In this document: one piece after another, positions 4,024 through 64,000 of the stretch
How the letters are laid out: every line of letters begins with the position of its first letter
Numbering within the stretch: position 1 is the first letter of the stretch
Source: Squalus acanthias
Taxonomy: Eukaryota
Reading direction: 5' to 3'
Assembly (NCBI GenBank): GCA_030390025.1
Contig: CM059432.1
Location: 4,836,001 to 4,900,000, forward strand
DNA length: 64,000 nucleotides
Notes under the pieces: generated by a model
What the model was told of the DNA's origin: nothing
What the model saw: only the letters and a program-made list of their open reading frames with translations
The model's database searches: none
Position numbers and translations under genes: made by a program

Positions 4024-4725
4024 GTAGGCCGTGCCTATGATATCAATCGTTAGAACGATTCCTTTTGGTTTAAGAGTCATACGACCAAGAGCTGGATGTT
4101 TTTGGTGTGTCTATAAATCTGCTGCCTTATACGTATTTTTTTTTTTTCTTGTACTACTGTTTAACGGGATAGGCTTTTGCCGTCGGTACTCGAGCAAGAA
4201 ATATATTGACGTATTGTCACTTCCATTGTACAGTGGAAATATAAATATCAGGACGTTCCTCTGAAGGGGAAAGTCAGGCTCCTTCCCTCTCCCATGGTAA
4301 CTGTCTGAGGCTGAGCCAGACCGTTGGCAAGCCTTGGTGTCGTATTTGACCCCGAGATGAGCTTCTGGCCATGAATCCGCGCCATCACCCAGAGGGTGGT
4401 GAACCTGTGGAATTCGCTACCACAGAAGGCTGTGGGGGCCAAGTCACTGAATATATTTAAGAAGGAGATAGATAGATTTCTGGACACAAAAGGCATCAAG
4501 GGGTGTGGGGAGAGAGCGGGAATATGGTATTGAGATAGAGGATCAGCCATGATCATATTGAATGGCGGAGCAGGCTCGAAGGGCCGAATGGCCGACTCCT
4601 GCTCCTATTTTTCTATGTTTCTATCACCAAGACCGCCCATTTCCACCTCGGTAACATCGCCCGATTCCACCTCTTGCCTCAGCTCATCTGCTGCTGACAT
4701 CCTCGTCCCTGCCTTTGTTATCTCT

Positions 4726-5082
4726 GATGTGGAGATGCCGGTGTTGGACTGGGGTGGACAAATGTGAGAAGTCGCACAACACCAGGTTATAGTCCAACAG
4801 CTTTATTTGAAATCACAAGCTTTCGGAGCGCTGCTCCTTCGTCAGGTGAAGTGAAGAGATGCATTTCGGCACAGCATATATAGTCAGAGAACACTGCCAG
4901 ATGATTACAGTTAAAGGGTAGTTGGAAAGATTAACTGTAATCATCTGGCAGTGTTCTCTGACTATATATGCTGTGCTGAAATGCATCTCTTCACTTCACC
5001 TGACGAAGGAGCAGCGCTCCGAAAGCTTGTGATTTCAAATAAAGCTGTTGGACTATAACCTGGTGTTGTGCGACTTCTCACT
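4726..5082. mobile_element. Palindromic PLE-A terminal insertion (inverted terminus with tail, plus direct terminus)
   Basis: Inverted arms of about 150 bp (4764-4914 and 4931-5081). The 3' end matches 58456-58542. TSD TTTGTTATCTCT at 4714-4725 and 5083-5094, inside an L2-like fragment. Confidence 0.88.
4996..5032 (+). ncRNA. Minimal hammerhead ribozyme (PLE-A); mirror copy on the minus strand at 4813-4849
   Basis: TCAC-CTGACGA-A-GGAGC-agc-GCTCC-GAAA-GC-TT-GTGA. Confidence 0.8.
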
Positions 5083-8159: not shown

Positions 8160-10901
8160 AAGTCTATTATAAAAGATGTGACAACAGGGCACTTAGAAAA
8201 TATCAACGGGATTAGACAAGGTCAACATGGATTTATGAAAGGGAAATCGTGTTTGACAAACCTACTGGAGTTTTTTGAGGATGTAACTGGTAGAATAGAT
8301 AAGGGAGAACCAGTGGATGTGGTGTATTTGCATTTTCAGAAGGCCTTTGATAAAGTCCCACATAAGAGGTTAGTGTGCAAAATTAAAGCACATGGGATTG
8401 GGGGTAATATACTGGCATGGATTGAAAATTGGTTAACAGACAGGAAACTGAGTAGGAATAAATGGGTCTTTTTCGGGGTGGCAGGCGGTGACTAATGGGG
8501 TACCGCAGGGATCAGTGCTTGGGCCCCAGCTGTTCACAATATATATCAATGATTTGGATGAGGGAACCAAATGTAATATTTCCAAGTTTGCTGACGACAC
8601 GAAACTAGGTGGGATTGTGAGTTGTGAGGAGGATGCAAAGAGGCTTCAAGGCGATTTAGACAAGTTGAGTGAGTGGGCAAATACATGGCAGATGCAGTAT
8701 AACGTGGACAAATGTGAAGTTATCCACTTCGGTAGGAAAGACAGAAAGGCAGAGTATTATTTAAATAGTGATAGATTGGGAAATGTTGATGTACAGAGGG
8801 ACCTAGGTGTCCTTGTACACCAGTCACTGAAAGCAAACAAGCAGTTAGGAAGGCAAATGGTATGTTGGCCTTCATTGCAAGAAGATTTGAGTACAGGAGC
8901 AAGGATGTCTTAGTTATACAGGGCCTTGGTGAGACCACACCTGAAGTACTGTGTGCAGTTTTGGTCTCCTTACCCAAGAGGTGTAATAAAGGGCAGTTAG
9001 AAAGATTAACTGTAATCGTCTGGCAGTGTTCTCTGACTATATATGCTGTGCCGATATACATCTCTTCACTTCACCTGACGAAGGAGCAGCGCTCCGAAAG
9101 CTTGTGATTTCAGATAAAACTGTTGGACTATAACCTGGTGTTGTGCGACTTCTCACATTTACCCAATAAAGGATATAGTTGCCATAGAGAGAGTGCAGCG
9201 AAGGTTCACCAGACTGATTCCTTGGATGGCAGGACTGTTGTATGAGGAGAGATTGGGTCGACTAGGCCTGTATTCACTAGAGTTTAGAAGAATGAGAGGG
9301 GATCTCATTGAAACGTATAAAATTCTGACAGGGCAAGACAGACTGGATGCAGGGAGGAAGTTTCCCCTGGCTGGAGAGTCTAGAACTAGGGGTCATAGTC
9401 TCAGGATAAGGGGTCGGCCATTTACGACCGAGATGGAAAAGAATTTCTTCACTCAGAGGGTTGTGACTTTTTGGAATTCCCTGCTGAGGCTGAGATTGAT
9501 AGATTTTTGGACTCTAGGGGAATCAAGGGATATGGGGATAGGGCGGGAAAGTGGAGTTGAGGTCGAAGATGAGCCATGATCCTATTGAATGGCTCGACAG
9601 GATAAATCTTCATTTAGAAAGACATGGATTAATCAAGGACAGTCAGCATGGATTTGTTACGGGAAGGTCGTGTCTGACTAACTTGATTGAATTTTTTGAG
9701 GAGGTAACGAGGGTTGATGAAGGTAGTGCATTTGATGTAGTCTATATGGATTTTAGCAAGGCTTTTGATAAGGTCCCGCATGGCAGACTGGTCACGAAAG
9801 TAAAAGCCCATGAGATCCAAGGCAAAGTGGCAAGTTGGATCCAAAATTGGCTCAGAGGCAGGAAACAAAGGGTAATGGTCGAAGGATGTTTTTGTGACTG
9901 GAAGGCTATTTCCAGTGAGGTTCCGCAGGGCTCAGTACTGGGTCCTTTGCTTTTTGTGATGTATATCAATGATTTGGACTTGAATGTAGGAAGTATGATT
10001 AAGAAGTTTGCAGATGATACAAAAATTGGCCGTGTGGTTGATAATGAAGAAGTAAGCTGTAGACAGCAGGAAGATATCAATGGACTGGTCAGGTGGCCAG
10101 AACAGTGGCAAATGGAATTCAACCTGGAGAAGTGTGAGGTAATGCTTTTGGGGAGGTCTGACAAGGCAAGGGAATACACTATAAATGGTAGGATACTGAG
10201 AAGTGCAGAGGATCAGAGGGACCTTGGAGTGCATGTCCACAGATCCCTGAAGGTAGCAGGACGGGTAGATAAGCTGGTTAAGAAGGCATAAGGGATACTT
10301 GCCTTTATTAGCCGAGGCATAGAATATAAGAGCAGGGAGGTTATGCTTGATCTGTATAAAACACTAGTTAGGCCACAGCTAGAGTACTGCGTGCAGTTCT
10401 GGTCACCACATTACAGGAAGGATGTGATTGCACTAGAGAGGGTGCAGAGGAGATTTACGAGGATGTTGCCAGGACTGGAGAATTTTAGCTATGAGGAAAG
10501 ATTGGATAGGCTGGGGCTGTTTTCTTTGGAACAGAGGAGGCTGAGGGGAGACCTAATTGAGGTGTATAAAATGATGAGGGGCCTAGATAGAGTGGATAGG
10601 AAGGGTCAGTAACCAGATGGCATAGATTTAAAGTAATTGGTCGGTTTAGAGGGGATATGAGGAGAAATGTTTTCACCCAGACGGTGGTGACGGTCTGGAA
10701 CTCACTGCCTGAAAGGGTGGTAGAGGTAGAAACCCTCATCACACTAAAAGGCACTTGGATGTGCACTTGAAGTGTCGTAACCTACAAGGCTACGGACCAA
10801 GAGCTGGAAATGGGATTAGGGTGGAGAGCTCTTTGTCGGCCGGCATGGACAAGATGGGCCGAATGGCCTCCTTCTGTGCTGTAAATGTCTATGATTCTAT
10901 G
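8160..10901 (+). mobile_element. Two adjacent or nested decayed CR1 LINE copies (~8160-9593 and ~9595-10901)
   Basis: Frameshifted ORF2 peptides (QHGF..GKSCLTNL, VPQGSVLGP, FADD) and CR1 3' tails. Confidence 0.9.
8978..9158 (+). mobile_element. PLE-A terminal fragment with hammerhead (9071-9107), inserted in a CR1
   Basis: Near-identical to 4915-5081. Flanked by duplicated TTACCCAA (8970-8977 and 9159-9166). Confidence 0.85.
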
Positions 10902-15327: not shown

Positions 15328-15724
15328 NNNNNNNNNNNNNNNNNNNNNNNNNNNNNNNNNNNNNNNNNNNNNNNNNNNNNNNNNNNNNNNNNNNNNNNNN
15401 NNNNNNNNNNNNNNNNNNNNNNNNNNNNNNNNNNNNNNNNNNNNNNNNNNNNNNNNNNNNNNNNNNNNNNNNNNNNNNNNNNNNNNNNNNNNNNNNNNNN
15501 NNNNNNNNNNNNNNNNNNNNNNNNNNNNNNNNNNNNNNNNNNNNNNNNNNNNNNNNNNNNNNNNNNNNNNNNNNNNNNNNNNNNNNNNNNNNNNNNNNNN
15601 NNNNNNNNNNNNNNNNNNNNNNNNNNNNNNNNNNNNNNNNNNNNNNNNNNNNNNNNNNNNNNNNNNNNNNNNNNNNNNNNNNNNNNNNNNNNNNNNNNNN
15701 NNNNNNNNNNNNNNNNNNNNNNNN
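15328..15724. other. Assembly gap (397 N)
   Basis: Run of N. The left flank is a CR1 tail and the right flank starts inside a SINE. Confidence 1.
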
Positions 15725-19348: not shown

Positions 19349-19554
19349 GATGTGGAGATGCCGGTGTTGGACTGGGGTGGACAAATGTGAGAAGTCGCAC
19401 AACACCAGGTTATAGTCCAACAGTTTTATTTGAAATCACAAGCTTTCGGAGCGCTGCTCCTGACTTCACCTGACGAAGGAGCAGCGCTCCGAAAGCTTGT
19501 GATTTCAAATAAAGCTGTTGGACTATAACCTGGTGTTGTGCGACTTCTCACATT
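19349..19554. mobile_element. Short palindromic PLE-A terminal insertion with hammerhead (19466-19502, +)
   Basis: Same GATGTGGAGATGCC start as the copy at 4726, with arms of about 75 bp. TSD TCTTTA(C/A)ACATT at 19337-19348 and 19555-19566. Confidence 0.87.
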
Positions 19555-19616
19555 TCTTTAAACATTGCCATGGGATCTTTAGTATCCACCTGTCCCAAAA
19601 TATAAAAGAAAAACAA

Positions 19617-27492: not shown

Positions 27493-30055
27493 AGAATCAT
27501 AGAATGAGACAGCACAGAAGGAGGCCATTCAGCCCATCGTGCCTGTGCTGGCTCTATGAAAGAGCTCTCCAATTAGTCCCGCTCCCCTGATCTTTCCCCA
27601 CAGCCCTGCAAATTTTTCCTTTTTAAGTATTTATCCAATTCCCTTTTGAAAGTTACTATTGAATCTGCTTCCCCCACCCTTTCAGGCAGCGCATAACAAC
27701 TCGCTGTGTAAAAAAAAAAAAAAATTCTCATCTCCCCACTGGATTTTTGCCAAATCTCTTAAATCCATGTCCTCTGGTTACCAACCCTCCTGCCAGTGGA
27801 AACTGTTTTTTTCCCCATCTATTCTATCAAAAACCCCTCTATTAATTCTCCCCATAACCTTCTTTGCTCTAAGGAGAACAATCCTGGCTTCTCTAGTCAC
27901 TCCACATAAATGAATACCCTCATCCCTGGTACCATTCTGGTAATATCCTCTGCGCCCTCTATTGAACACAATATTCTGGGCTGAGGCATAACCAGTGAAT
28001 TATAAACGTTTGCCATAACTTCCTCGCTTTTGTACTCTGTGCCTCTATTTATAAAGTCAAGGATCCCGTATACTTTTATCACAGCCTCATCAACTTGTCC
28101 TGCCACCTTCAAAGATTTGTGTATTTGAACACCAGCTCTCAGTTCCTGCACCCCCTCTTTGAAATGGTACCATTTAGTTTATATTGCCTCTCCTCATTCT
28201 TCCTACGAAAATGCGTCAGTTCACACCTTCTCTGCATTAAATTTCATCTGCTGTGTGTCCGCCCATTTCACCAGTCTGTCCACGTCCTTCTGAAGTCTGT
28301 TGCTATCCTTCTCATTGTTTACTACATTTCCGATTTTCGTATCATCTGCAAACTTTGAAATTATACCCCCTATACCCAAGTGCAGGTCATTAATACATAT
28401 CAAAAATAGCAGTGGTCCTAATACCGACCCCTGGGGGACACCACCACACACCTCCCTCCAGTCTGAAAAGTAACTGTTCACCACTACTCTCTGCTTTCTG
28501 TCCCCCAGCCAATTTTGTAGCCACGCTGCCACTGCCCCTTTAATCCCATTGACTTCAATTCTCCGAACAAGTCTATTATGTGGCACTTTATCAAACCCCT
28601 TTTGAAAGTCCATATACGCAACATCAACCGCACTACCCTCATCAACCCTCTCCGTTGTTTCATCGAGGAACTCAACCAAGTTAGTCAGAGACGATTTGCC
28701 TTTAACAAATCTGTGTTGGCCGTCATCGATTAACCCATGTTCTTCCAAATTCATTGTGTCTCGGATTGTTGTCTCTAAAAGTTTCCCCACCACCGACCTT
28801 AGGCTGACTGGCCTGTAGTTGCTGGGTTTATCCCACTCCCCTTGTTTGAACAAGGGTGTAACATTTGCAGTCCTCCAGTCCTCCGACACCACTCCCATAT
28901 CCAAGGAGGATTGGAGGATTGTGGCCAGAGCCTCCGCAATTTCCACCCTTACTTCCCTCAGTAACATCCCATCCAGACCGGGTGACGTTTCTACCTTGAG
29001 GGCTGCCAACCATTTCGGTACCTCCTCTTTATCTATTTATATCCAATCCAAGTTCTCTACTCCCCTCCTCCTTTCAACATTGTAACATTGGCAGCATCCT
29101 CTTCTCTCGTGAAGACAGAAGCAAAGTGCTCATTTAGTATCTCAGCCGTGCCCTCTGCCTCCACAAGATGATTTCCTTTTTGTTCATTAATCGGCGCAAC
29201 CTTTCCTTTGACTGCCTTTTTACTCTTCATATGTTTATAAAAAAACTTTTAATGTTCCTTTTTATGTTACCCGCTAATCTTTTCTCATAGATTCTCTTTG
29301 CCCCTCATATTTCCCTTTTCAATTCTCCTCTGTACTTTCTGTATTCAGCTTGATTATCTACTGAATTATGAACCTGACATTTATCATAAACCTCCTTTAT
29401 CTGTTTCATTTTAACCGGGTAGCGCTCTCACCTTTGAATCAGAAGGTCATGAGTTCAAGTCCCGTCCCCAGAGAATTGAGCACATAAAGCTAGGCTGACT
29501 CTCCAGCGCAGGGCTGAGGGAGTGCTGCACTGTTGGAGGTGCCGTCTTTCGGATGAGACGTTAAACCGAGGACCCATCTGCTCTCTCGGGTTGACGTAAA
29601 AAATCCCATGGCACTAATTCGAAGAAGAGCAGGGGAGTTCTTCCCGGTTTCCTGGCCAATATTTATCCTTCAACCAACATCACTAAAGAAAAACAGATTA
29701 TCTGGTCATTGCTGTTTGTGGGAGTTTGCTGTGCGCAAATTGGCTGCTGCGTTTCCTACATCACAACAGTGACTACACTTCAAAAAGTGCTTCATTGGCT
29801 GTAAAGCACTTTGGGACGTCCTGAGGTCATGAAAGGTGCTATAGAAATGCAAGTTTTTCTTTTCTTTGTTTGAATATCTTTAGTCATCCAGGGAGCTTTA
29901 ACATTGGATGCCTTTCCTTTCCCCCTCGTGGGAATGTGTCTAGTCTGTACCCAAACTATCTCCTCTTTGAAGGGCTCCCATTGCTCATTTACTGTTTTAC
30001 CTGCCAATCTTTGTTTCCAATCCACCTGGGCCAGCTCCTTTTTCAACCCACTGAA
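27493..30055 (-). mobile_element. Decayed CR1 LINE (~2 kb) with a nested SINE at ~29417-29865
   Basis: The 262-aa RT-like ORF at 28221-29009 and flanking frameshifted ORF2 sequence. Confidence 0.88.
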
Positions 30056-31366: not shown

Positions 31367-31975
31367 GAGTTAACGTGTCGGGTCCAGAAAAGCCCGTTTC
31401 TTCCAATACACCATGGCCTCCAACTAATCAAACCCAAAGTTTCTGAGGAAGGTGATTTTTCCACACCAGGCAAAACTTCCAAAATAATCAGCTTCTTCCA
31501 CATGTTCTTGCCACGCACTGAACAACCCTCCACAACCGATCCGTAACATCAGCAAAAATACTGCGGATGCTGGAAATCTGAAACATAAACACGGAATGCT
31601 GGAATTACTCAGCAGGTCGGGCAGCATCTGTGGAGAGAGAGAGAGAGAGAAACTAGAGTTAACGTTTCAGGTCGATGACCCTTCGTCAGAACTGCAAGAT
31701 GTTAAGAGCATAGGCCAGCCAGTCCCAAATTATCAGCATCTACATTTGGAATTACTGTTTAAAGGGTCAAATCTAATCTTTTTAGAACTAGGAAACTAAA
31801 AAGCAGCCAGTTACATATCAATGGGACGAAAGCAAAATACTGCGGAGACTGGAAATCTGAAATATAAACACGGAATTGCTGGAATTACTCAGCACGTCGG
31901 GCAGCGTCTGTGGAGAGAGAGAGAGAGAGAGAAACTAGAGTTAACGTTTCAGGTCAATGATCTACCATCAGAACG
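31085..31975 (-). mobile_element. Cluster of PLE-B terminal fragments in TTR intron 3
   Basis: Repeated AAATACTGCGGATGCTGG...GCAGCATCTGTGGAGAGA...GAGTTAACGTTTC units starting near 31085, 31306, 31550 and 31830. Confidence 0.75.
31657..31693 (-). ncRNA. Minimal hammerhead ribozyme (PLE-B)
   Basis: Minus strand reads AGTT-CTGACGA-A-GGGTC-atc-GACCT-GAAA-CG-TT-AACT. Confidence 0.78.
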
Positions 31976-37590: not shown

Positions 37591-39330
37591 CCCTCCGATC
37601 GCACCGTGCCACACCCTCCGATCGCACCGTGCCACACCCTCCGATCGCACCGTGCCACACCCTCCGATCGCACCGTACAACACATTCCGATCGCACCCTG
37701 CCACACCCTCCGATCGCACCCTGCCACACCCTCCGATCGCACCCTGCCACACCTCCGATCGCACCGGGCCACACCTCCGATCGCACCGTGCCACACCTCC
37801 GATCGCACCGTGCCACACCTCCGATCGCACCGGGCCACACCCTCCGATCGCACCGGGCCACACCCTCCGATCGCACCGGGCCACACCCTCCGATCGCACC
37901 GGGCCACACCCTCCGATCGCACCGGGCCACACCCTCCGATCGCACCGGGCCACACCCTCCGATCGCACCGGGCCACACCTCCGATCGCACCGGGCCACAC
38001 CTCCGATCGCACCGGGCCACACCTCCGATCGCACCGGGCCACACCCTCCGATCGCACCGGGCCACACCTCCGATCGCACCGGGCCACACCTCCGATCGCA
38101 CCGGGCCACACCTCCGATCGCACCGGGCCACACCTCCGATCGCACCGGGCCACACCTCCGATCGCACCGGGCCACACCTCCGATCGCACCGGGCCACACC
38201 TCCGATCGCACCGGGCCACACCTCCGATCGCACCGGGCCACACCTCCGATCGCACCGGGCCACACCTCCGATCGCACCGGGCCACACCCTCCGATCGCAC
38301 CGGGCCACACCTCCGATCGCACCGGGCCACACCTCCGATCGCACCGTGCCACACCTCCGATCGCACCGTGCCACACCTCCGATCGCACCGTGCCACACCC
38401 TCCGATCGCACCCTGCCACACCTCCGATCGCACAATACCACGCCTCCGATCGCACAATACCACGCCTCCGATCGCACCGGGCCACGCCTCCGATCGCACC
38501 GGGCCACGCCTCCGATCGCACCCCGCCACGCCTCCGATCGCACCCCGCCACGCCTCCGATCGCACCCCGCCACGCCTCCGATCGCACCCCGCCACGCCTC
38601 CGATCGCACCCCGCCACGCCTCCGATCGCACCCCGCCACGCCTCCGATCGCACCCCGCCACGCCTCCGATCGCACCCCGCCACGCCTCCGATCGCACCGT
38701 GCCACGCCTCCGATCGCACCGTGCCACGCCTCCGATCGCACCGTGCCACGCCTCCGATCGCACCGTGCCACGCCTCCGATCGCACCGTGCCACGCCTCCG
38801 ATCGCACCGTGCCACGCCTCCGATCGCACCGTGCCACGCCTCCGATCGCACCGTGCCACGCCTCCGATCGCACCGTGCCACGCCTCCGATCGCACCGTGC
38901 CACGCCTCCGATCGCACCGTGCCACGCTTCCGATCGCACCGTGCCACGCCTCCGATCGCACCGTGCCACGCCTCCGATCGCACCGTGCCACACCCTGCGA
39001 TCGCACAATACCACACCTCCGATCGCACCATGCCACACCTCAGATCGCACCGGGCCACACCTCCGATCGCACCGTGCCACACCTCCGATCACACCGTGCC
39101 ACACCTCAGATCGCACCGTGCCACACCTCAGATCGCACCGTGCCACACCTCAGATCGCACCGTGCCACACCTCAGATCGCACCGTGCCACACCTCAGATC
39201 GCACCGTACCACACCTCAGATCGCACCGTGCCACACCTCAGATCGCACCGTGCCACACCTCAGATCGCACCATGCCACACCTCAGATCGCACAACATCAC
39301 ACCTCCGATCACACCATACCACACCTCAGA
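37591..39330. repeat. 22/23-bp CpG-rich minisatellite (CCACAC(C)CTCCGATCGCACCGKG), roughly 75-80 units
   Basis: Tandem array read directly from the sequence. Confidence 0.97.
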
Positions 39331-40775: not shown

Positions 40776-40823
40776 CTTGTAAATTGGCTTAAAAACGTGA
40801 AAAAATATTCAGAGACATTATAC

Positions 40824-41815
40824 ACACACTCCACACTGCCTCAACGGTAACTTCACGATGCTGGCTTCTCACACACTCCACACTGCCTCAACAGTAACCT
40901 CACGAGACCAGCTTCTCACACACTCCACACTGCCTCAACGGTAACCTCACGAGACCAGCTTCTCACACACTCCACACTGCCTCAACGGTAACTTCACGAT
41001 GCTGGCTTCTCACACACTCCACACTGCCTCAACAGTAACCTCACGAGACCAGCTTCTCACACACTCCACACTGCCTCAACAGTAACCTCACGAGACCAGC
41101 TTCTCACACACTCCACACTGCCTCAACGGTAACCTCACGATGCCAGCTTCTCACACACTCCACACTGCCTCAACGGTAACTTCACGATGCCGGCTTCTCA
41201 CACACTGCCTCAACGGTAACCTCACGATGCCAGCTTCTCACTGCCTCAACGGTAACCTCACGATGCCGGCTTCTCACACACTGCCTCAACGGTAACTTCA
41301 CGAGACCAGCTTCTCTCACACTGCACACTGCCTCAACGGTAACTTCACGAGACCAGCTTCTCTCACACTGCACACTGCCTCAACGGTAACTTCACGAGAC
41401 CAGCTTCTCTCACACTGCACACTGCCTCAACGGTAACTTCACGAGACCAGCTTCTCTCACACTGCACACTGCCTCAACGGTAACTTCACGAGACCAGCTT
41501 CTCACACACTCCACACTGCCTCAACGGTAACCTCACGAGACCAGCTTCTCACACACTCCACACTGCCTCAACAGTAACCTCACGAGACCAGCTTCTCGCA
41601 CACTCCACACTGCCTCAACGGTAACCTCACGATGCCGGCTTCTCACACACTGCCTCAACGGTAACTTCACGATGCTGGCTTCTCACACACTCCACACTGC
41701 CTCAACAGTAACCTCACGAGACCAGCTTCTCACACACTGCCTCAACGGTAACCTCACGAGACCAGCTTCTCACACACTCCACACTGCCTCAACGGTAACC
41801 TCACGATGCCGGCTG
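40824..41815. repeat. ~47-bp minisatellite with ~40-bp variants (CACACTCCACACTGCCTCAACGGTAACCTCACGAGACCAGCTTCTCA), about 20-22 units, in the last B4GALT6 intron
   Basis: Tandem array read directly from the sequence. Confidence 0.95.
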
Positions 41816-49335: not shown

Positions 49336-50093
49336 CTGTAAAATACAACAATCTTACAACAACAACAACAACTATTTATATAGCATCTTTAACGTAGTAA
49401 AACGTCCCAAGGCGCTTCACAGGAGTGATTATCAAACAAAATTTAACACCGAGCCACATAAAGAGATATTAGGGCAGGTGAACAAAAGCTTGGTCAAAGG
49501 GGTAGGTTTTAACGATCATCTTAAAGGAGGAAAGCGAGGTAGAGAGGTGGAGGGGTTTAGGGAGGGATTCCAGAGCTTGCGATCTAGGCAGCTGAAGGCA
49601 CGGCCGCCAATGGTGGAGCGATTAAAATCGGGAAATGTCAAGAGGCCAGAATTGGCGGAGTGCAGTGATCTCGGGAGGGTGGGGTGGGTGTGGGTGGTAG
49701 GGCTGGAGGAGATTACAGAGATAGCAACTTTATCTTGCATTCGGAATTAATATTTTCCAGAAATGCTACACTCATATGACCAACTGGAGATGTTTTGAAA
49801 CTTTACCCTATTGAAGAGGGTTAGATAAGGGTTCAATACACCAACTCTTGGGACTCAGCCTGTGCCCTAAAAAAACATTTGCCCCCTCCCCCGCCCCCCG
49901 AATACTTATCCCCCATGCTGAAGGCATCCTTTATTTTTTTTTTAAAACTGTGTCGCACTTTATATAAAATGCCATTATTGTCAGCTTATGCTCGGTTCTG
50001 TGCTACACAAATTTATAGAATTTTGGTTGATCAAGAATGTCTTATTTCTGACCCAAAATTTTTAGAAAGTTACAAATGAAAGGTAACTTTCAA

Positions 50094-50805
50094 AGGGTGT
50101 CCTTGTGCACCAGTTGCTGAAGGTAAGCATGCAGGTGCAGCAGGCGGTTAAGAAGGCAAATGGTATGTTGGCCTTCATAGCGAGAGGATTCGAGTACAGG
50201 AGCAAGGATGTCTTGCTGCAGTTGTACAAGGCCTTGGTGAGACCACACCTTGAGTATTGTGTGCAGTTTTGGTCGCCTTATCTGAGGAAGGATGTTCTTG
50301 CCATGGAGAGAGTGCAGCGAAGATTCACCAGACTGATACCTGGGATGGCAGGAATGACGTATGAAGAGAGATTGGGTCGATTCGGCTTGTATTCGCTAGA
50401 GTTTAGAAGAATGAGAGGTGATCTCATTGAAACTTATAAAATTCTAACAGGACTAGACAGACTAGATGCAGGAAGGATGTTCCCGATGGCAGGGGAGTCC
50501 AGAACCAGGGGTCACAGTCTAAGGATAAGGGGTAAGCCATTTAGGACTGAGATGAGGAGGAATTTCTTCACCCAGAGAGTGGTGAACCTGTGGAATTCTC
50601 TACCACAGAAGGCAGTTGAGGCCAACTCATTAAATATATTCAAGAAGGAGTTAGATATATTTCTTAAGGCTAAAGGGATCAAGGGATATGGGGAGAAAGC
50701 AGGGACAGGGTACTGAATTTGGATGATCAGCCATGATCTCATTCAATGGCGGAACAGGCTCGAGGGGCCGACTGGCCTACTCCTGCTCCTAGCTTCTGTG
50801 TTTCT
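50094..50805 (+). mobile_element. Young 5'-truncated CR1
   Basis: Intact 203-aa ORF2 C-terminus closely similar to the copy at 62164. Confidence 0.92.
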
Positions 50806-53079: not shown

Positions 53080-55651
53080 CTGGAGGGGAAAAAGAAAATG
53101 TGGCATGGTCAATAAATGCAACACAGCCTTAGCACAACTGATCAAAGCACATCACATCTCTGCTGTATTTTATTATCTATTCTATGTGCTAAGGATAGTT
53201 GACAAATTTTATTTTGTTTTAAAAATGGTGTATAAAAACAATAGACACTTGATGACCAGCACACTAAACATTCTATTCCCTTATCAGAAGTGCTTCTGTC
53301 CCATATTTAACTAGCTTTTGAGCCAGTGCTCTTTGCTTAGGATTATACATTTTAATATCTTTACAGCCCAAAAATGACAATTCTCCTTTGCATGAATATT
53401 TCTGTATATTAGGTAGCATATCAGGGCATAGCCAAGGGAAACTAGCAATGACAGATGTTTCATCAATTTAATCCTGATGGCTGCTGAGAGCGTCAAAAGA
53501 TGAAGAACTTTATATTGGAAGAGCACAGCTATTGTGATCCCTTTTGAAGTAGTGATCCACACTGGGCTATCTTGTCTAACCTCCTCGTCACCTTGGCTCA
53601 CTGGTGGCATTCTCACTTGAATCAGAAAGTTGTGGGGTCAAGCCCCATTCCTGAACTTGAGCACATAATCTAGGCCGATACCTCAGTCCAATACGGAGGG
53701 TGTGCTGCATTGCTGGGGTGGGGGGGGGGGGGGGGGGGGGGGGTGCTACTGTCTTTGAGATGTTAAACTGAAGCCCCCTTCTGGCTGCTCAGGTGGATGT
53801 AAAAGATCGCATGACACTATTCAACAAAGAACAGGGAGCTCTCCTGGCCAACATCTCGATCAACCAACACCACCAAAACAGTTTAACCGTATTTCTTTGG
53901 CTGTGAAGTACTCTGGGACATCCTGTGGACATGCAAGGCATTACATAAATGCGTGCTCTTCCTTTACTTCCCTTTCTTAAATAATAGACCAAATGAGCCT
54001 CCTTCCAATGCATTGGAACTAGTTGAAAAGCTCAGACCTCAGTGAATTATTAAATATATGAGGCAGTGGCTGCCATGCGGCATTCCTCATTTCCTTAAGC
54101 ACTCTAGTAGGGTAAAGGGAATCAGGTCCAGATGCACAGCCAGATTTAAATGCCTTAATCCTAGCCAATACTATTTCCACAGTTACTTCTGCTGAAGCAA
54201 CTCTAGCACATCTACCAAGGGACTGTATCACCTTTAGAAGTAGAAAAGCAATGCCAAGTAGGAGACATGGATAGAAATATGTAGTTTAATTATGGTAGCA
54301 CCCTCGCCCGAGTCAGAAGGTTGTGGGTTCAAGTCCCACTCCAGAGACTTGAGCACAGAAAGCTAGGCTGACACTCCAGTGCAGTACTGAGGGAGTGCTG
54401 CACCGTCGGAGGTGTAGTCTTTCGGATGAGACGTTAAACTGAGGCCTCGTTTGCTCCCTCAGGTGGATGTAAAAGATCCCATATTTCAAAGAAGAACAGG
54501 GGAGTTCTCCCCAATGTCCTGGCCAATATTTATCCCTCAATCAACTTCACAAAAACAGATTGTGTGTTATGCAGAATTATGCAGTTTAAAGAACAGAAGT
54601 TGTACAGTAGAATTTCATGCATTTGCCTTCTATAAAAAAACACTAGCATTTTTATTGCGCCTTTCACAGCCAACGAAGTACTTTTTGAAGAGGAGTCACT
54701 GTTGTAATGTAGGAAACGCAGCAGCCAATTTGCAAACAGCAAGCTCCCACAAACAGCAATGTGATAATGACCAGATAATCTGTTTTAGTGATGTTGATTG
54801 AGGGATAACTATTGCCCAGGACACTGGGGATAACTCCCTTGCTCTTCTTCGAAATAGCATCATGGGATCTTTTATGTCCATCCGAGAGAGCAGATGGGGT
54901 CTTGGTTTAACGTCTCATTCGAAAGACGGCACCTCCGACAGTGCAGCACTCCCTCAGTACTGCATTGGGAGTGTCAACCTAGATTTTTGTTCTCAAGTCT
55001 CTGGAGTGGGACTTGAACCCACAATCTTCTGACTCAGAGGCGAGGGTACTACCCACTGAGCCACAGTTGATGCTAAAGTGGGCCTCCCGAAGCAGCTAAC
55101 ACCTGCTGCTTATCATGCTTGAGATTCGGAGATAAACTACACATGCTACCGTTAGACACTAGCCCATTGATACTTAATTGAAGCTGGTCTGGCAATCTTG
55201 GGAAAGGAGAGATAAGAGATCATCTTCACTCACGTCAATCAATAGAAGTAATGTAGAATACCCAGTGTCACTACTCTGCAGTGTAAAGATGTAAAGCTAC
55301 ACACGTGAATAAGACGGCATCAAGTCTGTGTAACTTGGCATATATGGACATTTTGATAAGGAACTTGTAGCTCAGAAAAGGTGCAAAATGTCGGACTGGA
55401 ATGAGGATTTGGATTCAAAGGGTTCGATCAACCTGGACTGAGCTCAGAATTGTAACACATTTGAGTTCCCATCCATCAGGGTGTAGTTGGAAGTGTTACA
55501 TTTTGAGTGTATGCCTAAGCACTATTGCATGTACTATTTACTTAATAGATCTATGAACGCTTGACTTCAACATTTTAAGAACCTTACTGTTTTGAGGAAC
55601 AGATATAGCATATAATATCATAAACAAAAATATTTCCTCTAATAGTATCTA

Positions 55652-58542
55652 TGATGCAGAGATGCAAGAAAGCAGACAAGATTCCGAAAGGACTATAGAT
55701 CACGAACCCACTCAAGTCGACATACAACACAGACTACGCTGAGAGACTTTGCCGTCGTACCTCTCGCACACTCCTCAACCATCTCGTACACCAGCTCTAC
55801 AGCAGACGTCGCAACCTCGAAACCAAGATAGAGTCCATGCTCTCAGCCTGTGCTCAGGACACAGCAGACCAGCTACGAGACACCGCCAAACAGACGAGGC
55901 AACGGAACTACGCTGCCTACATGCGCATCAAGAACAGGAAGCTTGAGAAACTCGGCGTAACCACCAGCTACAACCAAGCCTCCCCCGGTACCACGGTTGC
56001 AACCACAGGGAAGTCCATCGTCAACCTGTCGGACCACACCCTTCAACCAGACGAAATCGAAGTTCTCGCCCTAGGGCTCAAGTTCTGCCCCACCACCAAA
56101 ATGGACCCCATCGGTCTCGCGGCGGACACAGAGGAATTCATCAGGAGAATGAGGATCCGGGAATACTACCACAAATCCCAAGATGTCAGCAACATTCCTA
56201 ATGGGACAATCAATGATCCGGAACAGCAGACAGAGGGAACCGCAGTGCTACAACCGAGGAAGAAAGAGTCAAATTGGACCCCTCCGGAGGGTCGCAACCC
56301 TAAGCTTGACATGTATGCTCAAGCTGTCAGGAAATGCATCAACGCCAGATTCATCAGCCGTACTCACAAGACAGTCCAGAATGTCACCCGAGCACAACGC
56401 AACGCCATCCACGCACTCAAGACCAACCGCAACATCGTCATCAAACCAGCGGACAAAGGAGGAGCCATCGTCATACAGAACAGAACGGACTATTGCAAAG
56501 AAGCATACCGACAACTGGACAACCAGGAACACTACAGACAGCTACCCGCAGATCCGACCAAAGAACACACCCGCCAACTCAATAGACTGATCAAGACCTT
56601 CGATCCAGACCTTCAAAACATCCTACGCACTCTCATCCCACGTACTCCCCGCGTGGGAGACTTCTACTGCCTCCCAAAGATACACAAAGCCAACACACCC
56701 GGACGTCCTATCGTATCAGGCAACGGAACCCTGTGTGAGAACCTCTCTGGGTACGTCGAGGGCATCCTGAAACCCATCGTACAGGGAACCCCCAGCTTCT
56801 GTCGCGACACTACAGACTTCTTGCAGAAACTCAGCACCCATGGACCAGTTGAACCAGGAACACTCCTCGTCACAATGGACGTATCGGCACTCTACACCAA
56901 TATCCCCCACAATGACGGCATCGCTGCGACAGCCTCAGTACTCAACACCAACAACAGCCAATCTCCGGACGCCATCCTACAACTCATCCGCTTCATCCTT
57001 GACCACAATGTCTTCACCTTCGACAACCATTTTTTCACCCAAACACACGGAACAGCCATGGGGACCAAATTCGCACCCCAATACGCCAACATCTTCATGC
57101 ACAAGTTCGAGCAAGACTTCTTCGCTGCACAGGACCTCCAACCAACGCTGTACACCAGATACATCGACGACATCTTCTTCCTTTGGACCCACGGCGAAGG
57201 ATCACTGAAAGGACTACACGATAGCATCAACAGGTTCCATCCCACCATCAAACTCACCATGGACTACTCCTCAGAATCGGTTTCATTCTTGGACACACGA
57301 ATCTCCATCAAAGACGGACGCCTCAGCACTTCACTCTACCGCAAGCCCACGGACAACCTCACGATGCTCCACTTCTCCAGCTTCCACCCTAACCACGTTA
57401 AAGAAGCCATCCCCTATGGACAAGCCCTGCGAATACACAGGATCTGCTCAGACGAGGAGGAACGCGATGGACACCTACGGACACTGAAAGACGCCCTCGT
57501 AAGAACGGGATATGACGCTCGACTCATCGATCGACAGTTCTGACGGGCCACAGCGAAAAACCGCATAGACCTCCTCAGAAGACGAACACGGGACACAACC
57601 AACAGAGTACCCTACGTCGTCCAGTACTTCCCCGGAGCGGAAAAACTACGCCATGTTCTTCGCAGCCTTCAACATGTCATCGATGACGACGAACACCTTG
57701 CTAAGGCCATCCCCACGCCTCCACTACTCGCCTTCAAGCAGCCGCCTAACCTCAAAAGTACCATCGTTCGCAGCAGATTACCCATCTTTCAGGAGAACAG
57801 CAACCAAGACACCACACAACCCTGCCACGGCAACCTCTGCAAGACATGCCAAATCATGGACACAGATACCATCATTACACGTGAGGACACTACCCACCAG
57901 GTACACGGTACATACTCATGTGACTCGGCCAATGTTGTCTACCTGATACGTTGCAGTAAAGGATGCTCCAGAGCATGGTACATCGGCGAGACCATGCAGA
58001 CACTGAGACAACGTATGAACGGACACCGCGCAACAATCGCCAGGCAGGAGGGTTGCCTCCCAGTCGGGGAACACTTCAGCAGCCAGGGGCATTCAGCCTC
58101 GGATCTGCGGGTAAGCGTTCTCCAAGGCGGCCTTCGAGATACACGACAGCGCAAAATCATAGAGCAGAAACTGATAGCCAAGTTCTGCACTCATGAGGAT
58201 GGCCTCAATCGCGATATCGGGTTCATGTCACGATACAGAACGTGACTTGACATCATGGCCGGTCTTCCCAGGTGTTTTTTTTTTAAACACAAGAACACAA
58301 ATTGACAGGATATGCAGCCAGCAGGTGGTTTGACACGTTGGACCCCCTGGGACACATCTCATTGTCTTGGCTGTGCTCTTTGTTGTAAGGAATAATGTGA
58401 ATAGATTTTGTCTGGGTTTAAATTGTGAATTCTGGGAGATTCTCTCATTGCTAACTTACCTGACGAAGGAGCGAACTGCTTCGAAAGCTTGTAAAATTAA
58501 ATAAATCTGTTGGACTATAACCTGGTGTTGTGCGACTTCTCA
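55652..58542 (+). mobile_element. Penelope-like element family A, RT + GIY-YIG, 5'-truncated
   Basis: One reading frame from 55651 to 58245 with RT motifs (KPADKGG, DVSALYTNIP, GTAMG, RYIDD) and a GIY-YIG domain (NVVYLIRC...WYIGET). It is interrupted only by TAG at 55696 and TGA at 57541. A 12-bp TSD TAATAGTATCTA lies at 55640-55651 and 58543-58554. Confidence 0.95.
58456..58494 (+). ncRNA. Minimal type I hammerhead ribozyme in the 3' terminus of PLE family A
   Basis: TTAC-CTGACGA-A-GGAGC-gaact-GCTTC-GAAA-GC-TT-GTAA: stem I, CUGANGA core, stem II, GAAA, palindromic stem III (AGCU). Confidence 0.8.
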
Positions 58543-60427
58543 TAATAGTATCTAGGCAGCTCATCTGCTATATCTTTATCCTACCTTGATAAATCTCTTT
58601 AATTGTTTACTAACTTGGAACTTAACTAACAAAAAAATGCTTTGCCATCTCTGCTATAATTGTCAATGACCCTATTTGCAATGACTTTAGCATTCATTCC
58701 CATCTTGGGCATAAACACATCGCTACGCTGTGTGGTGATTGTTCCCTTTATACCCAGTGAAATACTTTTGTTACTTTCTCGAAGAACCTCCTGACTTTGC
58801 CATTTAGGTTCCATGTCACCATGACCCTTCTTTTAATCTTGGGGACATACTAAAACATCTTCATCCATCAGCAGAGACTTAAATAAACTCCATTGTTCTT
58901 CAGTATTGCAGTTATTGTTGCCTCGCAGCAGATCACGATGAACCTTCTGTGAATCTTCTTTCCCAGGTGAAGTCATACTCTCATAAGCATGACATCGAGG
59001 TACAGAAATGGCAAAGAGCTGTATATAGCCGATGCTTAAGAAACTGTCTGGTAGACACAGCTCCACAATTCATCAATTGCTGAAAGGATCTGTTCAATAA
59101 GCATGGTATTCCCAATGAAATAGTAACTCTTCACAGCCCACAATATGCATATGAAAAGTTTAACCAGTTCAGCAGAGTATGGATTCAAGATACCCACAGT
59201 CTAACAGAAAGGCAGAAAATATTGTGATGGCGGGGAAATATTTGCTGAAGAAAAACTTGTATTTATATAGCATCTTTAACGTAGTAAAACGTCCTGAGGC
59301 ACTTCACAGGAGTGTTATAAAACAAAAATTTGACACCGAGCCACACAAGATGATGTTAGGGCAGATGAAGAGGTAGGTTTTAATGAGCGTCTTAAAAGGA
59401 GAAAAGCGAGGTAGAGGGGCGGAAAGGTTTAGGGAGGGAATTCCAGAGCTTAGGGCCTTGGCAGCTGAAGGCACGGCCACCAATGGTTGAGCGATTAAAA
59501 TCAGGGATGCGCAGGAGACCAGAATTGGAGGAGCGCAGAGATCTCGGAGAGTTATAGGGCTGAGGGGCAATTACAGAGACAGGGAGGGGGCGAGGCCATG
59601 GAGGGATTTGAAAACAAGGATAAGAATTTTATAATGGAGGCATTGCTTAACTGGGAGCCAATGTAGGTCAGCGAGCACAGGGGTGATGGGTGAACGGGAC
59701 TTGGTGCGAGTTAGGACACGGGCAGCCGAGTTTTGGATGACCTCAAGTTTGCGGAAGGTAGAATGTGGGAGGCCGGCCAGAAGAAAACTAAAGCCAATGG
59801 TCAAAATTTATATTTCGCCTTGCCTGACTATCAGAAGTTGCTTCATGGATCAGGAACATCTGTTAAGCTACTTATAGATTCTTCAAGATTCCTACTTTGC
59901 AGGCAAATAAAAGGAATAAAACAAGTAAAAAATGTAAAACAAGAAGCTATGACAGACGATTGAACGAGTTGTTCTTACCAATACAACATGAATGATTAAT
60001 ATAACATGAAAGCACAATGTTTCATACAAGTCTGCTGAAAACCCTATGGATGTAGAATAATGTTTTTTCAATAATGAAGAAGTGGACCATCCTCTATGGG
60101 GATCCAAGTAGGTTTTTTTTTTGAGGGGTTGGTTTGGTTCTAAGATGATGCGAGTGATGGTGGAAGATTCGAACCAAGTCACGTTTCTGTGGTAATCCAA
60201 TGCCAGAGCGAGGCAGGACCGCACTACTTCAGGGCAATGTTGCTGATTAACCGGCCAGCCTGGCTCATTCATGGCACTGGGAGAGGTAGATCAGCCTCTG
60301 GGGGCTGAAGTTCTTCCCACTTAGCTCCAAATAACCCTGGACTATTTCCACCAGATCAGAAAAGGCTGAGAGATCAAAAAAATGTAATTATGAAGGCTTC
60401 TGACAGGGTAAAAGAGAGAAAGACCAG

Positions 60428-61702: not shown

Positions 61703-61739
61703 AGTTCTGATGAAAGGTCATCGGCCTGAAACGTTAACT
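61703..61739 (+). ncRNA. Minimal hammerhead ribozyme (PLE-B) within terminal fragment ~61615-62008
   Basis: AGTT-CTGATGA-A-AGGTC-atc-GGCCT-GAAA-CG-TT-AACT. Confidence 0.78.
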
Positions 61740-62064: not shown

Positions 62065-64000
62065 CATAGATACATAGATACATAGAAGATAGGAGCAGGA
62101 GTAGGCCATCCGGCCCTTCGAGCCTGCTCCACCATTTAATGAGATCATGGCTGATCCTCCAATTCAGTATCCCGTCCCCGCCTTCTCTCCGTAACCCTTA
62201 ACCCCTTTTGCCTGTAGAAATATATCTAATTCCCTCTTAAATATATTTAATGAGCTGGCGTACACTGCCCTCTGTGGCAATGAGTTCCACAGGTTCACCA
62301 CCCTCTGAGTGAAGAAATTCCCCCTCATTTCTGTCCTAAATGGTTTAGCCCTTATCCTTAAATTATGTCCTCTAGTTCTGTTCTCACCCGCCAAGGGAAA
62401 CATTCCTTCTGCATCTAGTCTGTCTAGACCTGTCAGAATTTTATACACTTCTATGAGGTCCCCTCTCAATCTTCTAAACTCCAGTGTGTACATCCCTAAA
62501 CTACATAGTCTCTCCTCATAGGTCAATCCCGCCATTCCTGGTATCAGCCTGGTGAATCGCCGCTGCACCCCCTCCATGGCAAGAATATCTTTCCTCAGAT
62601 GAGGCGACCAAAACTGTACACAGTACTCGAGGTGTGGTCTCACCAGTGCCCTGTACAGCTGCAGCAAGGTATCCCTGTTCCTGTATTCCAACCCTTTTGC
62701 TATGAAGGCCAGCATACCGTTTGCCTTCTTGATCGCCTGTTGCACCTGCATGCTCGCCTTCAGTGACTGGTGTACAAGAACACCCAGGTCTCTCTGTACT
62801 TCCCCCTCTCCCAATTTATTGCCATTTAAATAATAATTTGCCCTCCCGTTCCTGCACCCAAGGTGGATAACTTCGCACTTGTCCACATTATAGTGCATCT
62901 GCCATTTATCCGCCCAATCACCCAGTCTGTCCAAATCGCTCTGGAGCTTCCTGGTCTCCTCCTCTGAGCCCACCCCCCCTCCTAGTTTAGTGTCGTCTGC
63001 AAATTTGGAAATGCTGCATCCGACTCCCTGATCCAGGTCATTAATGTAAATTGTGAACAGCTGGGGACCCAGGACAGATCCCTGTGGTACCCCACTTGTT
63101 ACTGCCTGCCATTCAGAAAATGAGCCGTTTATTCCAACTCTCTGTTTTCTATCTGACAGCCAGTTCTCTATCCACGTCAATACTTTCCCCTTTATCCCAT
63201 GAGCTTCAATTTTCCCTGCTAATCTTTTATGTGGGACCTTATCGAAGGCCTTTTGGAAGTCCAGGTACACCACATCTACTGGCTCTCCCCCATCTATTTT
63301 ACCAGTTACTCCCTCAAAAAATTCCAATAGATTAGTCAAGCACGATTTACCCTTTGTAAATCCATGTTGACTCTGTCCTATCCTGTCCCCATTTGCTAAG
63401 TGCTCCGCTATTTCATCCTTAATGATGGACTCCAGCATTTTGCCCACAACTGATGTAAGGCTTACAGGTCTGTAATTACCTGCTTTTTCCCTACCCCCCT
63501 TTTTGAATAGTGGGGTAACGTTAGCTACCCTCCAATCCATGGGCACTGTTCCCGAGTCTAATGAATTCTGAAAAATCATACTTAGTGCATCCGCTATCTC
63601 TCGGGCCACCTCCTTCAGCACCCTAGGATGCATGTTATCAGGCCCTGGGGATTTGTCCGCCTTCAATCCCTTTAGCTTCCTTAACACCATATCCTTAGAG
63701 ATATTGACTTGCGTCAGTTCCTCCTTTGCAAATGTCCCTATTTTTCCCGATATCCCAGGGAGGTTTTTTGTGTCTTCCTTCGTAAAGACTGACCCAAAGT
63801 ATGCATTTAGTTGGTCTGCCATTTCTTTATTTCCCGTTATATATTCCCCCGTATCTGACTGCAATGGGCCAACTTTGGTTTTCACCAGTCTTTTCCTCTT
63901 GATATACTTATAAAAGCTTTTGGAGTTAGTTTTTATATTTTCCGCCAGCTTGCTTTCGTAAGCTATTTTGCCCCTCTTGATTAAGCCCTTTGTCCTCCTT
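62065..64000 (-). mobile_element. Young CR1 LINE; ORF2 RT region open from the window edge to the stop at 62164
   Basis: More than 600 uninterrupted codons with NYRPVSLTS, GVPQGSVLGP and KFADD motifs. Short tandem tail reading (CATAGATA)n on the plus strand at 62065-62088. Confidence 0.95.

Follow-up and report, generated by a model that had tools for sequence, protein, structure and literature searches.

Layout and condition of the element copy

The window analysed here is a stretch of 64,000 nucleotides of the Squalus acanthias genome (assembly GCA_030390025.1, contig CM059432.1, positions 4,836,001 to 4,900,000 of the forward strand). At window positions 55640-58554 of the plus strand it contains what is very probably a 5′-truncated, stop-broken copy of a Neptune-type Penelope-like element (PLE), likely inserted by target-primed reverse transcription and carrying a predicted minimal hammerhead ribozyme on its 3′ repeat. 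The copy is bounded by a perfect 12-bp target-site duplication (TSD), TAATAGTATCTA, at 55640-55651 and 58543-58554, the longest direct repeat common to the two ends of the element, although the first T of the right TSD is possibly element-derived. The left TSD is followed by three junction bases (55652-55654) that resemble neither the TSD nor the family and are likely untemplated, family matches beginning at query base 4. Next comes the remnant of an open reading frame (ORF; 55655-58245), spanning codons 30-892 of an 892-aa protein with reverse transcriptase (RT) and endonuclease (EN) domains. Within it lie the RT core (56434-57366, limits approximate; ADKGG at 56449, DVSALYT at 56878, GTAMG, YIDD at 57160), a CX4CxxC zinc-finger-like linker, CHGNLCKTC (57823-57849), and the GIY-YIG endonuclease (57934-58209). 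The 3′ untranslated region (UTR; 58246-58455), the upstream part of the pseudo-long terminal repeat (pLTR), holds a T/A tract and is rich in indels in the subfamily alignment. It leads into the hammerhead motif (58456-58494) and a conserved downstream pLTR segment (58495-58542), which runs to the short, tail-less 3′ end of the family in a predicted hairpin loop.

The frame of this copy (phase 55651/55654) contains exactly three stops, TAG at 55696-55698, TGA at 57541-57543 and the terminal TGA at 58243-58245, as against 18 and 22 stops in the other two frames. Both the perfect TSD and the RT plus GIY-YIG frame with only two internal stops, as read in the initial annotation of this DNA, are thus upheld. 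Its description of the copy as near-intact was overstated and missed the 5′ truncation: family homology starts at 55655, inside the ORF at codon 30 of 892, and the first 29 codons and the upstream pLTR are gone, leaving the 3′ repeat only. The two internal stops are private to this copy, occurring in none of 29 others, and the GIY-YIG domain lies downstream of the second one. Relative to the rest of the family the copy shows 9 substitutions (5 of the CpG type) and a short deletion at the T/A tract. Because the start and the upstream pLTR are missing, the copy was probably dead on arrival; the copy is dead, and it is the family that is useful as a test system. A fixed 5′ end at 55655 in all copies was considered and rejected, since this position is the limit of the query and other copies reach further upstream.

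The family in the genome

A similarity search over the 3.71-Gb genome returned 3,628 candidates; among the matches listed, 40 of 44, one of them the window copy, extend over nearly the full length with 98-100% identity. Family statistics refer to the best 30 loci by score, which biases the share of ORFs upward. A natural full ORF of about 892 aa is found in 17 of these 30 copies and an open body in 23. The stop-free copies that the initial annotation proposed to look for therefore exist, and the reconstruction of an enzyme that it envisaged becomes moot. In 18 of the 29 other top copies an upstream pLTR containing a hammerhead adjoins the tail and start codon; 13 of these copies also have a full ORF, and many of the 29 have inverted partners. 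The family unit comprises a tail, the 892-codon RT-EN ORF, the 3′ UTR and the hammerhead, and since such units often occur in partial tandem, the hammerhead comes to lie about 92 nt upstream of the start codon.

Sister subfamilies, whose 3′ ends carry a TCAC/GTGA stem I, have ORFs of their own that are 87-96% identical in protein and 90-95% in DNA, with dN/dS between subfamilies of 0.15-0.46. Conservation around the hammerhead is uneven: over the 96 nt that precede the motif, subfamilies agree at only about 51-66%, with many indels, compared with 90-95% for the ORFs, whereas agreement reaches 90-96% over the 48 nt that follow it (13 of 14 comparisons) and 72-87% over the motif itself. The notion that the 3′ UTR is captured host DNA was rejected, as it aligns across subfamilies with indels.

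Protein and clade placement

The protein displays the features expected of an endonuclease-positive PLE, with a single ORF in which the RT precedes a C-terminal GIY-YIG domain. The alignment reveals IPKGL, DKG, the RT A/B/C motifs, the CX4CxxC linker and a GIY-YIG domain with CCHH and the R, H, E and N residues (VVYLIRCSKGC, YIGET, RQRMNGH, VGEHF, IIEQ, GLN), two cysteines of the CCHH set lying between GIY and YIG (RCSKGC, RQRMNGH, VGEHF). Partial tandem (pLTR) and inverted arrangements occur in the family copies, and the optional tail of 30-40 bp is reflected in 3′ ends that are bimodal about 40 nt apart. Pfam RVT_1 matches the RT region (E 1.3e-8). The Pfam GIY-YIG model did not match the 233-aa C-terminal piece; the nuclease was identified through its motifs and through homologs, which do match PF01541. 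A predicted model of a natural intact copy (pLDDT 87, pTM 0.70) retrieved telomerase RTs as all ten top Foldseek hits against the PDB (E 2.6e-9 to 3.9e-7); a PDB sequence search with the protein gave no matches. The motif set and the telomerase-RT-like predicted fold bear out the PLE identity assigned initially. The expectation of a shark-type host also holds, as sharks supply the nearest named homologs (79-94% identity), ahead of turtle, crinoid and tick proteins; frog and hemichordate proteins are also among the named homologs.

A CX2-5CxxC linker is present in 65 of the 66 homologs that have the GIY motif (of 120 homologs). According to the portion of PMC8557442 covered here (the cited papers are drawn on in part throughout), this zinc finger is a mark of Neptune or Nematis that Poseidon lacks. 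The element is accordingly designated Neptune-type, a call based on the linker motif; a quick tree, built of unlabelled homologs, groups the family with the shark proteins. It is very unlikely that the element belongs to Nematis or to an unnamed PLE clade instead. The linker is common to Neptune and Nematis, Neptune is paraphyletic in PMC8557442 and the quick tree carries no labelled references, all of which leave room for such a placement. On the other side, the linker is here in the full CX2-5CxxC form, the Nematis form being described as reduced (PMC8557442), vertebrate PLEs are Neptune or Poseidon in the covered part of 10.64898/2026.07.22.740005, and the nearest named homologs come from sharks, turtles, a frog, a crinoid and a hemichordate.

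Insertion signature, 3′ ends and age

TSDs of at least 8 bp surround 71 of 101 inspected insertions, compared with 6 of 2000 shuffled pairs, and 44 of the 101 have a TSD of 12-13 bp, the mode of the family and the range into which the window copy falls. The median size of the inspected insertions is 299 bp. In a set of 121 motif copies the 3′ ends are bimodal, 58 ending 48-62 nt and 45 ending 92-104 nt past the predicted cut; of the remainder, 12 continue into an ORF, 4 end elsewhere and 2 are unplaced. These two end sites, about 40 nt apart, reflect the PLE tail. The near one is located in a predicted hairpin loop and the far one at the start codon; the window copy terminates at the near site, and contigs of other organisms likewise end at the far site. 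In the anole PLE two such ends correspond to RT start sites (PMC11167929). A handful of mini-insertions of about 50-90 bp (L211, L221, L250, L251) have TSDs of their own and start at or just past the predicted cut, without a hammerhead core.

The best 30 copies differ by 0.84% on average (minimum pairwise distance 0.14%), while between partners of the same insertion the difference is 0-1.5% (24 pairs, median 0.37%), one such pair showing 0 mismatches in 942 positions. Taking the epaulette shark rate of 7e-10 per generation (PMC10587355), 0.2-0.3% per lineage would correspond to 3-4 million generations. This value is an upper bound, because CpG decay (66 of 198 private changes are CpG changes) and RT errors contribute, and the rate used is that of a different species. 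With mutation as slow as in sharks, an identity of 99% is not necessarily a sign of recent activity. The earlier claim of recent activity thus stands as to the low divergence and not as to the date, which could lie millions of generations back. About half of the sampled words of the element are present in five organisms, which indicates that close relatives of the element are common to several species. Present-day activity of the family is possible.

The hammerhead motif and its abundance

The 3′ motif reported for this copy is present as described, at 58456-58494, and reads TTAC-CTGACGA-A-GGAGC-GAACT-GCTTC-GAAA-GCTT-GTAA: stem I TTAC/GTAA, core CTGACGA, an extra A, stem II GGAGC/GCTTC, GAA and the palindrome AGCT. 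Cleavage is predicted after GAAAGCUU, between 58490 and 58491. The core CUGANGA with GAA and U16.1-H17, the unpaired base before stem II, the G10.1-C11.1 pair (A-U or G·U at 10.1-11.1 in a second lineage) and the palindromic positions 15.2-16.2 for a dimer helix III, as AGCT in one lineage and ACGT in the other, conform to a minimal type I hammerhead with a palindromic stem III, as had been proposed. Rfam gave no hammerhead match, either for the window at the gathering threshold or for 58200-58700 at E values up to 10, probably because its models need a full helix III.

Genome-wide, the pattern CTGAYGAA-N11-19-GAAAGCTT matches 41,826 times (AGCTT), compared with 10 matches for the reversed control, so the motif is not a product of chance. 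Exact-core motifs with ACGTT number 57,063 (111 in the control) and those with C or A at position 17 number 12,531 (144 in the control), giving a total of about 111,000. The ACGTT motifs belong to a second PLE lineage whose protein is 29-41% identical to that of the window family. Two minimal hammerheads of this lineage are found in the window, one at 31657-31693 on the minus strand, with stem I AGTT/AACT and the palindrome ACGT, and one at 61703-61739 on the plus strand. This lineage (also L104, L107 and L189) shows the ACGT palindrome together with a CX4CxxC linker.

The segment ACTTACCTG at 58453-58462 reads CAG/GTAAGT on the minus strand, which we take to be a textbook 5′ splice site, and its plus strand presumably resembles the 5′ end of U1 snRNA. 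Sister copies have CAG/GTGAAG at this site. Such a splice-site-like sequence could affect host introns in antisense insertions.

Covariation and structural selection

The double change of stem I to TCAC/GTGA, on which the proposal of structural selection had been founded, is present with cores at 5000, 9075 and 19470, and also in a fourth copy (4817-4845, minus strand), and loop II differs as stated. The first and fourth belong to an inverted pair of sister-subfamily 3′ ends on both strands at 4726-5082 (hammerheads 4817-4845 minus and 5000-5028 plus), flanked by a 12-bp TSD at 4714 and 5083; the second lies in a truncated sister-subfamily 3′ end on the plus strand at 8987-9160 (limits approximate); the third lies in a fold-back pair of such ends on both strands at 19383-19555, whole on the plus strand with a partial hammerhead on the minus strand. 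Since the short copies are identical across the motif, they represent one change and not three, and since TCAC/GTGA copies are the 3′ ends of sister subfamilies with ORFs of their own, the double change is a single lineage event.

Stronger support for structural selection than the cited stem I pair comes from covariation across the genome, where pairing was not required by the search pattern. Between the two lineages, 8 of 11 pairs have changed on both sides and still pair (4 in stem I, 3 in stem II and the stem III palindrome), and amplified variants within the AGCT lineage contribute a stem II change from C-G to U-A as well as several G·U wobbles. In the loci listed first, pairing in stem II holds for 24 of 24 AGCTT loci and 25-26 of 26 ACGTT loci; for stem I pairs 1-4 the respective figures are 22-24 of 24 and 21-26 of 26. 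Slid registers break the pairing of both stems. In 27 chosen natural variants 98.7% of 297 cells pair, compared with 20-46% when slid, and 9 of 11 pairs show a double change; as these rows are hand-picked and related, the outcome is not to be read as a probability. The palindrome, AGCT or ACGT, is kept in 99 of the first 100 C17/A17 matches. Helices I and II are accordingly supported by compensatory changes, stem I pair 4 being relaxed.

Does the predicted ribozyme cleave?

Several points weigh against the reading of this copy as a Neptune-type PLE that carries a minimal hammerhead ribozyme. The Neptune label is motif-based, without a tree of labelled references. The independent covariation events are few, most double changes reflecting one split between two lineages; beyond that split only stem I pair 3 and stem II pair 5 change, within the AGCT lineage. 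Stem I pair 4 is G·A in an amplified subfamily (5 of 23 C17 loci). At stem I pair 3, 166 copies have C·A and 343 have U·G; these hybrids are rare and mostly scattered mutations nested in TCAC/GTGA subfamilies, with a U·G subfamily among the C17 copies, and their relative counts give weak support to pairing. The window variant itself has a predicted stem II probability of 0.10, compared with 1.0 for a sister differing by one base. No clear 5′ junction peak, or genomic cleavage footprint, appears at the predicted cut in the sister subfamilies. Finally, hammerhead mutants left insertion in vitro unaffected, and no RNA-seq ends were found at the hammerhead cut, in the covered portion of PMC11167929.

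The window variant is carried by 22 of the best 30 copies and has 2,074 exact copies genome-wide. It is predicted to favour a shifted CGAAG/CUUCG helix that buries G8, A9 and G12 (-8.6 vs -6.0 kcal/mol), while the predicted stem II probability is at least 0.96 in 24 of 27 variants. Its stem II change, missed in the initial annotation, is thus predicted to favour an inactive register.

As for the junctions, 405 of those in sister subfamilies fall at the predicted cut, compared with 98, 181 and 143 at positions -4, +2 and +4. By-eye inspection of 25 of them identified 7-9 fold-backs sharing GTGA with stem I and 2 small indels, which account for part of the excess; about 230-260 of the 405 remain after discounting both. 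Fold-back microhomology would explain most of the apparent 5′ junction peak, and no clear cleavage footprint is left. The lack of a clear footprint fits the published behaviour of PLE hammerheads, which show low activity as dimers (PMC4209133), and of the anole hammerhead, which cut once protein was added and whose cleavage is dispensable for insertion in vitro (PMC11167929). No RNA data set is listed as containing the element. In the only raw RNA run, 0 of about 10 million reads were placed on the element, a result that carries no weight either way, and assembled contigs show neither RNA ends nor strand.

A 68-nt GT..AG stretch (L009:1322-1389), which starts at the predicted cut and ends at a pyrimidine tract within the tail, 23 nt short of the start codon, is a possible intron. 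No splice joint for it was found in six contig runs and one metagenome run.

Proposed mechanism and alternative readings

By analogy with the anole PLE in vitro (PMC11167929), the GIY-YIG domain would nick AT-rich DNA, and the RT would begin copying inside the RNA at one of the two 3′ end sites. For the window copy, the nearer start site would have been used, the uncut hammerhead copied through, and synthesis halted 29 codons short of the start. The hammerhead itself may cut weakly, depend on a dimer or on protein, and serve to process tandem transcripts; on the 3′ repeat it would have to remain uncut during copying. With the RT starting downstream of the motif, each motif-bearing copy would have come from RNA uncut at that site; at least 41,826 such copies exist, and none of them could have been made from a template cleaved at its 3′ hammerhead. 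Variants that fold poorly, like that of the window copy, would then be favoured. A bolder extension, which we consider rather unlikely, is that one stem II change accompanied the spread of the youngest autonomous sublineage, locking the ribozyme in an inactive, shifted helix and acting as a natural switch, off on the 3′ repeat so that the RT can pass and opened on the 5′ repeat through dimerisation or through the protein of the element, in a genome with at least 111,000 PLE hammerheads, over ten times the published counts found. If this were true, the one-base sister pair and thousands of dated copies would make the in vivo role of PLE hammerheads directly testable.

It is also unlikely that the motif no longer cuts in this lineage and is kept as an RNA structure or protein-binding site near the RT starts, or as a passenger of the conserved downstream segment. 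Such an account would accommodate the success of a variant predicted to misfold, the higher conservation of the downstream 48 nt relative to the motif, the lack of a clear junction peak and the dispensability of cleavage in vitro for the anole PLE (PMC11167929). It sits less easily with catalytic core letters that are invariant in 27 variants from two lineages with proteins only 29-41% identical (letters partly required by the search), with a position 17 that varies among allowed bases only, and with cleavage of the anole hammerhead after protein addition (PMC11167929). That the short hammerhead copies constitute a non-autonomous retrozyme family using the element in trans appears extremely improbable. 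The inspected insertions are small, and retrozymes have been linked to PLE pLTRs (10.64898/2026.07.22.740005); however, the same 3′ ends continue into the subfamily ORFs described above, and the short copies have variable 5′ ends, many fold-backs and no tandem array among those inspected. Instead of the non-coding tandem units, each with a hammerhead, that define non-LTR retrozymes, the locus holds a coding element whose short copies are truncated ends. The truncated Neptune-type PLE copy with a predicted hammerhead is hence the preferred reading.

Comparison with known systems

The arrangement of a PLE with a terminal hammerhead is already known, and the window family adds a member. The pLTR hammerheads, their dimer logic and intragenomic covariation were described in 2014 (Cervera and de la Peña, PMC4209133). 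The minimal hammerheads of metazoan PLEs in the covered part of that study, including fish Xena, Poseidon and Neptune, have the same type I core and short helix I, the same unpaired base between A9 and 10.1, the G10.1-C11.1 pair and the palindromic 15.2-16.2; they are likewise mostly dispersed single motifs or opposite-strand pairs, with compensatory changes in several families. Helix II is 5 bp in the window family versus 7-8 there, and the roughly 111,000 exact-core motifs compare with about 4,000 in coelacanth and 9,000 in Xenopus, although the search methods differ. No shark appears in the covered portions of its text and supplement file 2, and no paper on shark PLE hammerheads was found in the open-access literature, whose supplements could still list one.

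PAc, a Poseidon of Anolis carolinensis (Frangieh et al. 2024, PMC11167929), shares the RT-GIY-YIG ORF, partial tandems, AT-rich targets, pLTR hammerhead and two RT start sites that define a 30-40 nt tail. Unlike the window family, it lacks a zinc finger in the linker, its hammerhead extends over the start codon instead of lying 92 nt upstream, and its RT starts lie 111-118 nt inside the ORF, whereas the two 3′ ends of the window family fall in the 5′ UTR and at the start codon. With the Neptune clade (Craig et al. 2021, PMC8557442) the family has in common the C-terminal EN with CCHH, the CX2-5CxxC linker, the DKG motif, pLTRs, inverted 5′-truncated partners and the tail; no difference was found in the part covered, in this motif-based comparison. 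Non-LTR retrozymes, of which one chondrichthyan case is reported (10.64898/2026.07.22.740005), have the same type I hammerhead related to PLE pLTRs, but they are non-coding tandem repeats, in contrast to a coding element with TSD-flanked truncated copies. A Penelope-like expansion in whale shark introns has already been reported (10.1101/443036).

Collectively, the results describe a Neptune-type family of a vertebrate in which full ORFs occur naturally in many copies, the TSD is sharp at 12-13 bp and both 3′ ends are mapped. The family offers a second clade for testing internal initiation, shown so far for one Poseidon, and its naturally occurring hammerhead variants, some predicted to fold well and others to misfold, make it possible to ask whether cleavage is important.

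Other features of the window

A 611-aa open frame on the minus strand at 62167-63999 is presumably ORF2-like of a CR1/L2-type LINE, judging by its motifs, and related fragments lie at 9542-10288, 28224-29036 and 50087-50713. A run of 397 N occupies 15328-15724. Two minisatellites are present, one at 37592-39327 with a period of 22 bp and 78 copies, open on both strands, and one at 40823-41806 with a period of 47 bp and 22 copies.

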